This document shows positions 702 through 13,783 of a stretch of DNA of 15,507 bases, one piece after another (the stretch's first letter is position 1; every line of letters begins with the position of its first letter). Source of the stretch: a virus (lineage: Duplodnaviria; Heunggongvirae; Uroviricota; Caudoviricetes); the IMG/VR virus record IMGVR_UViG_2563366806_000001, positions 1-15,507 of that record; one strand, 5' to 3'. Below the pieces are notes generated by a model that was not told the DNA's origin, ran no database searches, and saw only the letters and a program-made list of their open reading frames with translations. The translations under genes and the position numbers were made by a program.

Positions 702-713
702 CAAAAGAAAAAA

Positions 714-738
714 CCTGCCAGCAAACTGGCAGGTTTCT
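714..738 (+). terminator. rho-independent terminator after the KilAC ORF
   Basis: Stem CCTGCCAG (714-721) / CTGGCAGG (726-733), loop CAAA, followed by TTTCT. Confidence 0.6.
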
Positions 739-743
739 GAGCA

Positions 744-766
744 GATCGACCAACCCGATCTGGATC
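744..766. promoter_or_regulatory. cluster of three GATC (Dam) sites just upstream of the kilA control region
   Basis: GATC at 744-747, 757-760 and 763-766. Confidence 0.4.
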
Positions 767-778
767 GAGTTAGAAAAA

Positions 779-795
779 TTTGCTCTAATAAATTT
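779..795 (+). promoter_or_regulatory. C1-repressor operator-like site upstream of kilA
   Basis: TTTGCTCTAATAAATTT matches the recalled P1 C1 operator consensus ATTGCTCTAATAAATTT at 16/17 positions, about 70 bp upstream of the kilA ATG. Confidence 0.55.
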
Positions 796-864
796 CGTTT
801 TCTAAGTGCAAAGAATCACCATTTCGAGCTGGTGATTGAAGGTTGATGCAAATTTGGAGAAAAA

Positions 865-1665
865 ATGCAACAAACATTCAATGCGGATATGAATATATCA
901 AACCTTCATCAAAATGTCGATCCTTCAACCACTCTTCCCGTTATTTGTGGTGTTGAAATTACGACCGACCGCGCTGGCCGTTACAACCTTAATGCTCTAC
1001 ACAGAGCGAGCGGACTCGGTGCCCATAAAGCGCCAGCTCAATGGCTAAGAACGCTGTCAGCTAAACAGCTCATCGAAGAGCTTGAAAAAGAAACTATGCA
1101 GAATTGCATAGTTTCGTTCGAAGGCCGTGGCGGCGGCACTTTTGCCCATGAATTGCTCGCAGTGGAGTACGCTGGTTGGATTTCTCCCGCGTTTCGGCTG
1201 AAGGTAAACCAGACATTTATCGACTATCGAGCTGGAAGATTACAACCTGCTATTCCGCAGAGTCTCCCTGAAGCTCTCCGTTTGGCTGCCGACCTGGCAG
1301 AGCAAAAGCAACGGCTGGAGCAAAAAATGCTTATGGATGCACCTAAAGTCGAATTCGCCGAACGCGTTGCTACCGCCAGCGGGGTTCTAATCGGCAACTA
1401 TGCCAAAGTGCTCGGCCTGGGCCAAAACTATCTCTTCACCTGGTTGCGTGATAACGGAATTCTGATCGCAACCGGTGAACGCAGGAACGTCCCCAAACAA
1501 GAATACATATCCCGTGGGTATTTCACCCTTAAAGAAACCGTGATCGATACAAGCAATGGAAGCAGGATTTCTTTCACGACTCGTATAACCGGCAAAGGTC
1601 AGCAGTGGCTGATGAAGCGATTGCTTGATGCTGGTGTGCTGGTACCTGTCGCGGCAACGCGCTAA
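865..1665 (+). CDS. kilA: KilA (KilA-N domain plus KilAC domain), 266 aa
   Basis: SD GGAG 854-857, ATG 865. N-terminal KilA-N-like segment (PVICGVEITTDRAGRYNLNALHRASG). Length and position directly upstream of repL match the P1 lytic replicon as recalled. C-terminal domain paralogous to ORF 180-701. Confidence 0.8.
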   Translation: MQQTFNADMNISNLHQNVDPSTTLPVICGVEITTDRAGRYNLNALHRASGLGAHKAPAQWLRTLSAKQLIEELEKETMQNCIVSFEGRGGGTFAHELLAVEYAGWISPAFRLKVNQTFIDYRAGRLQPAIPQSLPEALRLAADLAEQKQRLEQKMLMDAPKVEFAERVATASGVLIGNYAKVLGLGQNYLFTWLRDNGILIATGERRNVPKQEYISRGYFTLKETVIDTSNGSRISFTTRITGKGQQWLMKRLLDAGVLVPVAATR

Positions 1666-12645: not shown

Positions 12646-13506
12646 TTATTCGGGAAGTTTCAGCTTTGGATTGCGAGAATGGACGATTACAAAACTTTCC
12701 CGGCCTTTCTTCTCAATTGAACAGTCGAGATAGCCAATTGTTTTAAGCTGTTCTATCGCTTTCTTAATGATACGGTTTTGCTCGCCAACAGCTGACTGCA
12801 AAGCCAGGCGCTCACGGATTCGCGCGAACGATAGCGGCAACGGGTTCTGCGGAAGGCTTTCGATGAAAGTGTAAATGGCTTGTGCAGCTTCTTTCTTCGG
12901 AAGGGCACGCAAGGCGTGGTGTTGCAACAGAACGCGATAATCAAGCTGGAACAGCTCCCAGAGCTTCGAATCGGCCTCCAGCTCTATCAGATCAAGGTCA
13001 GCATCAAAACGCCCGACCTTCAGCAGACCAGTCTGATAGCCGCCTTTAGCATCTTTTCCGCGCTTAAAAGCGATACCCTTGTTACGCAAGCGTCCAAGTG
13101 ATTCATGAATGGTTAAACGCAGTTTCGCATCCAGACGTTTTGAGGGGAAACCACAGGCTTTAGCGAACTCCTGAAACGATAACTGGATGGTGTTTGAAGA
13201 CAAGCCGTATTTGCTGAACGCGTAGATGACACCGATCCACGTTTTGAAATCAGTATCCATATCGAGTCGAGGACCGGTGATTTTAATATCATCGTAACCC
13301 TCGGCTTTAGCTATCTCCAGCTGGGAAAACGCTTTGGTGGCATCAATCTCTTTACTTTCTCCTTTGCTCTTTGATGGCTTCGGAACGAATACCCCCAAGC
13401 GCATCAACGCTACAGGCTGCACAGTGTTGTTTGAATTAACTGTTAGTTCTTTTGCCTTACTTTCAATGTCTGCGTAAAGAATATCGGAGATAAATGATTG
13501 ATTCAT
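12646..13506 (-). CDS. repA: RepA plasmid replication initiator (P1 RepA-like), 286 aa
   Basis: ATG 13506, TAA 12646-12648; flanked by iteron arrays on both sides; protein matches recalled P1 RepA in length and sequence. Confidence 0.9.
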   Translation of the reverse strand: MNQSFISDILYADIESKAKELTVNSNNTVQPVALMRLGVFVPKPSKSKGESKEIDATKAFSQLEIAKAEGYDDIKITGPRLDMDTDFKTWIGVIYAFSKYGLSSNTIQLSFQEFAKACGFPSKRLDAKLRLTIHESLGRLRNKGIAFKRGKDAKGGYQTGLLKVGRFDADLDLIELEADSKLWELFQLDYRVLLQHHALRALPKKEAAQAIYTFIESLPQNPLPLSFARIRERLALQSAVGEQNRIIKKAIEQLKTIGYLDCSIEKKGRESFVIVHSRNPKLKLPE

Positions 13507-13519
13507 ATTACTTTTTCCG

Positions 13520-13783
13520 AATTATGTGGATAGTTTTTATAAGTGGTGATAACTACCCAGGCTTTCCCGTCAGCACACATCCTATATCCCGCCAGCACAC
13601 ATTAGCAACCCGTCAGCACACATTTTTATCCCTCCAGCACACATCGTTTTCCCTCCAGCACACATCGCGATACACTTCTAAGCCAGACGTGGCGCGGCCT
13701 GCAACGATCAGGGATCTATATGGATCTAATTGGGATCTGTATGGACCTAATTATTGGATCTACCCAGTGGATAATGTGGATAA
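13520..13783. other. oriR-like plasmid replication origin
   Basis: DnaA-box-like TGTGGATAG (13525-13533); five iterons; five GATC sites (13706, 13713, 13723, 13734, 13757) in short A/T-rich repeats; tandem DnaA boxes AGTGGATAA (13766-13774) and TGTGGATAA (13775-13783). Confidence 0.8.
13565..13665. repeat. incC-like iteron array: five repeats at ~21-bp spacing
   Basis: (T/A)CCC(G/T)(T/C)CAGCACACAT at 13565, 13587, 13608, 13629, 13650, same family as the incA repeats; lies in the repA promoter/origin region. Confidence 0.85.

Follow-up and report, generated by a model that had tools for sequence, protein, structure and literature searches.

The stretch of DNA analysed here (the window; 15,507 nucleotides) is, by sequence identity, part of a P1-like plasmid prophage. 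Positions 600-1000 are 98-99.5% identical to phages P1, P7, RCS47, SJ46 and others, and match 511 plasmids, chiefly from Escherichia, with at least 95% identity in all but one. A KilA-based search of representative genomes returned only near-identical P1-like loci or relatives that are too distant (Chromatium, Symbiopectobacterium). Two plus-strand genes follow the control region. kilA (865-1665) is an open reading frame of 266 aa with a KilA-N domain (PF04383) and an ANT/KilAC domain (PF03374), named according to the P1 annotation; repL (1695-2540) is an open reading frame of 281 aa for the lytic replication initiator, with ~97% identity to P1 RepL, whose homologues carry the PF26868 (Phage_P1_RepL) domain. 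The 3' portion of the antirepressor gene ant lies upstream. It is interrupted by an IS1 end at 1-96, which puts the start of ant, together with c4 and icd, outside the window on its left side; in plasmid CP081699, at least, unrelated DNA stands in their place. The c1 gene is outside the window.

As judged from its sequence, the region in front of kilA is the well-studied Op53/P53 (OrepL/PkilA) control region of the P1 kilA-repL lytic replicon, and as such it is already known. The P1 annotation was taken from AF234172 (also NC_005856) and from the older record X15638; for positions past 708, the P1 coordinate in AF234172 is the window position plus 49031. The operator, promoter hexamers, Dam sites, Shine-Dalgarno sequence, kilA start and antisense promoter are shared with P1, and their order and spacing are the same. 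Between 739 and 930 there are substitutions relative to phage P1 at 749, 768 and 771 only, and all fall outside annotated P1 elements: 749 is between the first and second GATC sites, and 768 and 771 are in the promoter spacer. Upstream of 739, the sole base difference is one base in an A-run near 707; the locus also differs from P1 in that ant is cut by the IS1 end. The discovery value is small, as the operator, promoter, Dam sites and antisense promoter are all in the P1 record and have been described for decades. The value lies in the correct annotation of a P1-like plasmid prophage which has an intact lytic switch despite its IS1-cut ant. Only the small inverted repeat discussed below is without an existing P1 annotation.

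The sigma-70 promoter P53 (PkilA; 761-789, plus strand) is placed according to AF234172 and X15638. It has a -35 hexamer TGGATC (761-766), a 17-bp spacer and a -10 hexamer TCTAAT (784-789); both hexamers are identical to those of P1. A TG at 781-782, read from the sequence, would give P53 an extended -10. The -10 hexamer lies inside the 17-bp C1 operator Op53 (OrepL; 779-795, plus strand), which reads TTTGCTCTAATAAATTT, is identical to the annotated and experimentally defined P1 operator and matches the C1 consensus ATTGCTCTAATAAATTT at 16 of 17 positions. AF234172 words it as 'monovalent C1-controlled operator OrepL; corresponds to former Op53'. This is the sole operator match in the window at three or fewer mismatches (0.07 expected). 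The original prediction, which had proposed a C1-operator-like site with 16/17 matches at this position and had suggested repressor control of the lytic replicon, thus agrees with the textbook description of P1 Op53/P53, to which the region corresponds in sequence. Binding of C1 to Op53, and the overlap of P53 by Op53, are described for P1 in PMC9948254. Because the operator is identical, the action of C1 can be transferred to this locus: in the prophage state, C1 on Op53 would cover the -10 of P53 and keep transcription of kilA, and then repL downstream, switched off along with lytic replication. The predicted kilA leader is ~69 nt long (796-864, plus strand; its start is placed from the position of the -10, as the P1 records annotate none for P53) and contains the Shine-Dalgarno sequence GGAG at 857-860, given in X15638 as the ribosome-binding site; the gene itself begins with the ATG at 865.

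Three GATC (Dam) sites, a motif which reads the same on both strands, were located by scanning at 744-747, 757-760 and 763-766. The claim of three such sites in 23 bp (744-766) is correct, and AF234172 labels them 'Dam methylation site 1-3 within the regulatory region of kilA'. The third is inside the -35 hexamer TGGATC of P53; the others, at 744 and 757, are close by (within ~31 bp), with spacings of 13 and 6 bp. The triplet is clearly unusual against chance. Only one other triplet as tight as this (23 bp or less) occurs in the 15.5-kb window, and it belongs to a cluster of five GATCs at 13706-13760. Dinucleotide shuffles of the window contain a mean of 0.097 triplets, and at least one triplet is found in 8.7% of them. 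When only the intergenic stretch 702-864 is shuffled, the probability of a triplet is 0.0004; uniform placement of the 74 GATCs of the window gives P = 0.002 for a triplet inside that stretch.

In a neutral scan of the window for promoters and terminators, the part from 600 to 1100 yielded a single good promoter and a single terminator, and the minus strand carries both. The promoter is P53as (PaskilA; 892-920, minus strand), with a -35 TCGACA (920..915), a 17-bp spacer, a TG and a -10 TATATT (897..892). It scores 10/12 with the TG in the promoter scan, is identical to that of P1, and lies inside the 5' end of kilA, convergent with P53. A further GATC (919-922) overlaps the edge of its -35. 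P53as/PaskilA was overlooked in the first reading of the sequence. The terminator is a G+C-rich hairpin after the ant stop codon (709-738), with 13 pairs, 11-bp perfect arms and the tail TCTTTTGTTA; it is strong on the minus strand, where a T-run is next to the hairpin. As predicted from the sequence, the antisense RNA would stop there, and on the plus strand the hairpin would serve as a weaker terminator for ant. It is also kept where the gene upstream is not the same, as in pTB502, in which ant and the hairpin are ~480 bp further apart.

The annotated P1 antisense transcription start corresponds to position 884 of the window. Together with the terminator (738..709) and its U-tract, this start gives a predicted minus-strand RNA ('ask') of ~180 nt (180-184 nt) which runs from 884 to ~705, the 3' end being estimated from the scanned terminator (701-705). 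Heinrich 1995 reportedly describes a 180-base transcript, in agreement with the predicted length. The complementarity of the RNA takes in the start and Shine-Dalgarno sequence of kilA, then the inverted repeat and the operator, and finally both P53 hexamers and all three GATCs. It folds far better than its shuffles (z = -5.4; without the terminator, z = -2.9). A permissive Rfam search of 600-1000 gave no family near its gathering threshold; the best match, ctRNA_p42d, covers the terminator hairpin only (21.1 bits, against a threshold of 50). A P1 gene table in PMC10695390 lists 'ask' as the regulatory region of kilA. Antisense control is on record for P1, both in annotation and in print. P53as, a strong constitutive promoter, would fire from inside the first kilA codons back over the leader, the operator and P53, and the ~180-nt antisense RNA, stopping at 738..709, would damp expression from P53. 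A second regulator had been proposed for the region. One is indeed known, but it is the antisense RNA from P53as and not a protein at the inverted repeat. The control region can, with high confidence, be described as a layered switch, made up of C1 repression and the antisense RNA and, more tentatively, of the GATC sites and the inverted repeat as a putative RNA element.

Conservation was determined in a set of 84 sequences, made up of the window, P1 and their relatives among viral and genomic loci. Nucleotide diversity (pi per site) in this set is 0.004 for the operator, ~0.005 over the leader (796-864) and, for the terminator hairpin, 0.008; the third codon positions of kilA, a rough neutral yardstick, give 0.033. 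The operator has one variable column, which is changed in three of the 84 sequences. GATC sites 2 and 3 are invariant (84/84), and site 1 is lost in three sequences, which read CAGTTCG there. The promoter spacer (767-778) is a polymorphism hot spot, with a pi of 0.10 among the 84 sequences.

The inverted repeat is perfect, with arms of 8 bp on either side of an 8-nt spacer (AATCACCA at 814-821 and TGGTGATT at 830-837). These coordinates are as originally reported, as is the location upstream of the kilA Shine-Dalgarno sequence; the repeat ends 20 nt before GGAG. In the P53 transcript, as placed from its -10, it occupies approximately +19 to +42; the antisense RNA has it at +48 to +71. Against chance it is borderline (P ~0.05), since an equal one (a perfect 8-bp repeat with a loop of 3-12 nt) is found in 5.1% of shuffles of the 163-nt intergenic stretch. 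The window holds eight hairpins of this kind. A hairpin in the leader RNA had also been suggested. The predicted fold agrees with this; covariation lends it no support, and conservation is no better than in the rest of the leader. The hairpin has a predicted energy of -9.7 kcal/mol on the plus strand and -9.9 kcal/mol on the minus strand, with z-scores of -2.0 and -2.7, respectively, when isolated. It is present in the minimum free energy, centroid and alignment-consensus folds, and RNAalifold recovers it independently. The sense leader as a whole folds no better than shuffles (z = -0.4). None of the seven stem pairs has a compensatory change, among relatives which are 98% identical and too similar for covariation to speak either for or against the hairpin. 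Two substitutions are found in the stem: A821T (4/84), which breaks the closing pair, and T833C (1/84), which gives a mismatch in the sense RNA and a G-U pair in the antisense RNA.

A terminator or attenuator reading of the repeat was rejected: the terminator scan is silent here, and the bases past the stem, GAAGGUUG on the plus strand and CUUUGCAC on the minus strand, form no U-tract on either strand.

The sense and antisense RNAs overlap by 89 nt (796-884), and the hairpin at 814-837, near the middle, is the only stable local one in the overlap; this makes it a natural place for loop-loop contact. The inverted repeat is most likely an RNA element of this sort, although the contact between sense and antisense RNA is the weakest step of the proposed mechanism. 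Kissing-loop antisense systems include CopA/CopT of R1, RNAI/RNAII of ColE1 and Sok/hok. The P1-type locus resembles them in having a cis-encoded, fully complementary antisense RNA over the Shine-Dalgarno sequence and start codon, and in having complementary stem-loops predicted in both RNAs. The YUNR motif occurs in many antisense recognition loops, and by inspection it is present in both loops here (UUUCGAGC and GCUCGAAA); its chance frequency is ~1 in 4 per 8-nt loop. The locus differs from these systems in that loop contact in trans is only putative here, and promoter interference could explain the effect. Convergent promoters 88 bp apart are reported to interfere in published P1 work, and this interference could act without any loop contact.

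The best reading of the repeat is a stem-loop in RNA from which the pairing of sense and antisense transcripts may start, and a reading in which the repeat has no separate function is nearly as likely. In the latter, the repeat is a chance palindrome in a leader which is conserved for translation initiation and antisense complementarity. This is quite conceivable: the frequency of such repeats in intergenic shuffles (5%), the eight comparable hairpins in the window, the lack of covariation, the loss of the closing pair in 4/84 sequences and the unremarkable fold of the sense leader all fit it. The z-scores of the isolated hairpin, its recovery in all three kinds of fold and its being the sole stable local hairpin in the overlap count against it, as does the presence of YUNR in both loops, itself weak evidence. 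The repeat could instead act as DNA, as the operator of a second regulator that binds as a dimer, such as KilA or RepL in autoregulation, or a host factor. Its perfect symmetry (8 + 8 bp) and its location just after the transcription start, where a bound protein could block elongation, would suit such an operator; so would the KilA-N DNA-binding domain of KilA and the winged-helix-like character of RepL. The repeat is well conserved among relatives, but not above the flanking leader. The half-site TGGTGATT has no second copy in the 15.5-kb window, which includes repL, where oriL is located. The P1 record annotates binding sites for C1, IHF and others, but none at the repeat. When viral contigs were scanned, the pattern AATCACCA-N4-12-TGGTGATT turned up only at P1-like loci and in evident chance matches with differing spacers. 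Compared by eye, the repeat is not known to fit the consensus of any E. coli regulator. A protein operator at the repeat is thus very improbable, and the RNA stem-loop is preferred.

The presence of the GATC sites can be explained at the level of DNA, RNA, or both. As one GATC lies in the -35, the activity of P53 probably depends on methylation state or on SeqA binding. Dam-sensitive or SeqA-sequestered promoters include P1 cre, the IS10 transposase promoter pIN and the E. coli dnaA promoter. P53 resembles these in that a GATC overlaps a hexamer and the others are within one to two helical turns; by this analogy, its geometry fits methylation-dependent binding of RNA polymerase or SeqA. It differs in its TG extended -10, which may lower its dependence on the -35. 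Dam control of P53 matches the P1 annotation and is plausible, with circumstantial support from the GATC clusters of the relatives described below; the literature searched contained no experimental test of a Dam effect on P53. It should be noted that a TG extended -10 could make a weak -35 matter little, and with it the methylation of that -35.

GATC sites 2 and 3 also form part of a predicted 10-bp hairpin in the antisense RNA (750-773, minus strand), together with the promoter spacer. At the top of the stem, site 3 is paired with site 2; spacer positions 768-772 are in the 5' arm. Five of the ten pairs vary among the 84 sequences, on one side each, and all of the changes are transitions; in the rest of the region, transversions are about as common as transitions. 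On the antisense strand the variants switch among G-C, A-U and G-U, and pairing is kept in 99.2% of cells; for the mirror helix of the sense strand, the figure is only 70%. This pattern suggests that the antisense hairpin is maintained (P ~0.03 by a rough estimate), and the hairpin may be a second reason for the presence of the GATCs. Taken further, the triplet might have no Dam or SeqA role in P1 at all, and be kept as the self-complementary stem of an antisense-RNA hairpin before the terminator. Such an exclusive role is somewhat doubtful. It is favoured by the pairing of sites 2 and 3, by the five variable positions (pairing-compatible on the antisense strand only), by an extended -10 which may leave the -35 dispensable, and by a searched literature that holds no Dam experiment on P53. 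On the other hand, site 1 is outside the 10-bp hairpin and yet is retained in 81/84 sequences, and in the relatives described below (D6, Enterobacter kobei, JBIWA008 and Pantoea) the GATCs are in or beside inferred -35 and -10 hexamers. In the first three of these, the minus-strand terminator is downstream of the inferred promoter, so the antisense RNA would not cross the GATCs, yet the clusters persist. The DNA-level and RNA-hairpin roles are not mutually exclusive.

Five lineages of P1-related phage-plasmids, P1 included, have GATC pairs or triplets in or beside the promoter of the lytic replicon. Hexamers in the relatives were assigned by reading the sequence, and the Pantoea promoter was reported by the scan. 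Phage D6, which has a RepL 29% identical to that of the window and is without kilA, carries a GATC triplet upstream of repL that spans no more than 29 bp and is read as TTGATC-N18-TAGGATC. It also has a minus-strand promoter in the 5' end of repL and a minus-strand terminator in the leader. D6 thus resembles P1 in the GATC triplet upstream of repL and in the arrangement of antisense promoter and terminator. It differs in that its GATCs are in the inferred -35, spacer and -10, and in that its antisense terminator is downstream of the promoter, whereas that of P1 is upstream. No P1-type C1 operator is found in the D6 stretch examined at three or fewer mismatches. A plasmid of Enterobacter kobei has the same TTGATC-N18-TAGGATC pattern and a GATC triplet; its RepL-like protein has ~29% identity to RepL of the window and ~25% to that of D6, the latter over only 89 residues. 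The upstream regions of D6 and E. kobei give no convincing alignment, and MAFFT leaves their GATCs out of register. Enterobacter sp. JBIWA008 has TTGATT-N18-TAGGATC followed by two further GATCs. In a Pantoea agglomerans plasmid there is a GATC pair, with a promoter TTGATC-N17-TATTAT and the second GATC in its spacer. A blastn search of the P1 control region against the phage collection returned no D6-type record. RepL homologues of ~48% identity, found in Enterobacter and metagenomic contigs in another operon context, have neither an upstream GATC cluster nor a C1-like operator; in view of this and of the differing operon context, they were set aside as a guide to the P1 region.

For the lineages in which it was tested, the probability that such a triplet falls in the intergenic stretch by chance is 0.002-0.008 each. 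The clusters across lineages support a DNA-level role at the lytic promoter, through Dam methylation or SeqA binding; this sequence-based support is circumstantial, because the D6-type lineages share ancestry and are not mutually independent. A more ambitious proposal is that the GATC group is a conserved promoter design of P1-related phage-plasmids (P1, D6, E. kobei, JBIWA008 and Pantoea) which makes the firing of the lytic origin dependent on methylation, that in P1 the same bases double as an antisense hairpin, and that the inverted repeat is where the antisense RNA makes first contact with the kilA leader. As a whole, this proposal is speculative and rather unlikely. SeqA is known to sequester oriC and dnaA; if the proposal were true, the GATCs would be hemimethylated after passage of the replication fork, and SeqA could sequester the lytic promoter in the same way. 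For P1 specialists there are small leads in the two predicted antisense-RNA hairpins (one built from GATCs, the other from the inverted repeat) and in the annotated P1 Dam sites, as a similar GATC-rich promoter recurs in distant relatives. Elsewhere in the DNA of the relatives examined, such triplets are rare, and otherwise occur at likely origins. The five-GATC cluster of the window is probably the plasmid origin oriR; it adjoins a 286-aa open reading frame taken as repA.

The control module ahead of kilA begins at the terminator hairpin that follows ant (709..738). Some P1-like elements carry ~480 bp of additional DNA between ant and this hairpin; one is plasmid pTB502 (NZ_CP034821; positions 663-1150 of the locus). 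Extra DNA at the same place is also present in three viral-contig haplotypes with the start CTTATACAAAAAAACC. In the P1-like elements with the additional ~480 bp, the sequence is unaltered from the terminator hairpin onward; the module therefore starts there.

Ant itself is interrupted at the left edge of the window. Positions 1-96 are the end of an IS1 element (IS1B family), and only the 3' part of ant, encoding the KilAC/ANT domain, is left (97-701). In the plasmid collection, this IS1/ant junction is common to only seven plasmids. For CP081699, one of the seven, the sequence on the far side of IS1 is of the IncA/C mobI type, and the immI region (c4, icd and the start of ant) has therefore been replaced.

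The spacer of the P53 promoter is a polymorphism hot spot. At positions 767-772 nucleotide diversity (pi) is 0.10, three times the level at kilA third codon positions. Several alleles occur, including AGTTAG, AGTCAG, GGTCAG, GGCCAG and GACTGG. The changes are transitions only, and they preserve the pairing of the hairpin predicted in the antisense RNA (750-773). The -35 of P53 is weak, matching at three of six positions. Direct reading of the sequence shows a TGn extended -10, TGcTCTAAT (781-789), which falls within the C1 operator consensus; an extended -10 of this kind could make up for the weak -35. The control region also contains two more perfect 8-bp inverted repeats. One, TTAGAAAA/TTTTCTAA (770-777 / 798-805), flanks the operator on both sides; it is just 7 bp long in most relatives because position 771 is polymorphic. 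The other, AAATTTGC/GCAAATTT (776-783 / 848-855), has one arm at the left edge of the operator and its partner directly 5' of the Shine-Dalgarno sequence.

The convergent antisense promoter, P53as, lies in the 5' end of kilA. This end contains a 19-nt imperfect tandem direct repeat (889-926; 74% identity); the P53as -10 lies in one copy, ATGAATATATCAAACCTTC, and the -35 in the other, ATCAAAATGTCGATCCTTC. Within region 915-923, a GATC at 919-922 overlaps the P53as -35 (TCGACA, 920..915). This GATC has no Dam-site annotation in P1. The 7-mer GGATCGA is common to the -35 regions of P53 and P53as.

Outside the kilA control region, GATC triplets occur in the window only in a cluster at 13706-13760, which has five GATCs in 55 bp. 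It adjoins a 286-aa ORF on the minus strand (12646-13506). By comparison with P1, the cluster is probably oriR, the plasmid origin that depends on methylation, and the ORF beside it probably repA. The Enterobacter sp. JBIWA008 plasmid has four GATCs in 37 bp (1936-1972) within its repL-like gene; by analogy with P1 oriL, which lies inside repL, these sites could mark an internal lytic origin.

The regions compared around the start of repL lie at 2225-2460 in phage D6 (L093), 1170-1420 in L095 and 1150-1300 in L221 (two other loci), and 1100-1260 in the JBIWA008 plasmid (L222). An inferred repL promoter, TTGATC/TTGATT-N18-TAGGATC, is common to the D6-type phage-plasmids. The repL leaders of D6, E. 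kobei and JBIWA008 have a minus-strand terminator hairpin, and D6 has a minus-strand promoter within the repL 5' end. An antisense RNA may accordingly be common to these lytic replicons in general. The 8-mer GATCGAGT is common to P1, D6 and the Pantoea plasmid.

KilA matches under unrelated taxa are found on two short contigs. One, from the MAG 'Bacillota bacterium' (JAFAFU010000019), encodes a KilA 100% identical to that of the window; the other, from Acinetobacter idrijaensis (JQCU01000197), encodes only the first 35 residues, also 100% identical. The likeliest source of both is E. coli P1-like DNA that was mis-binned or entered as a contaminant.
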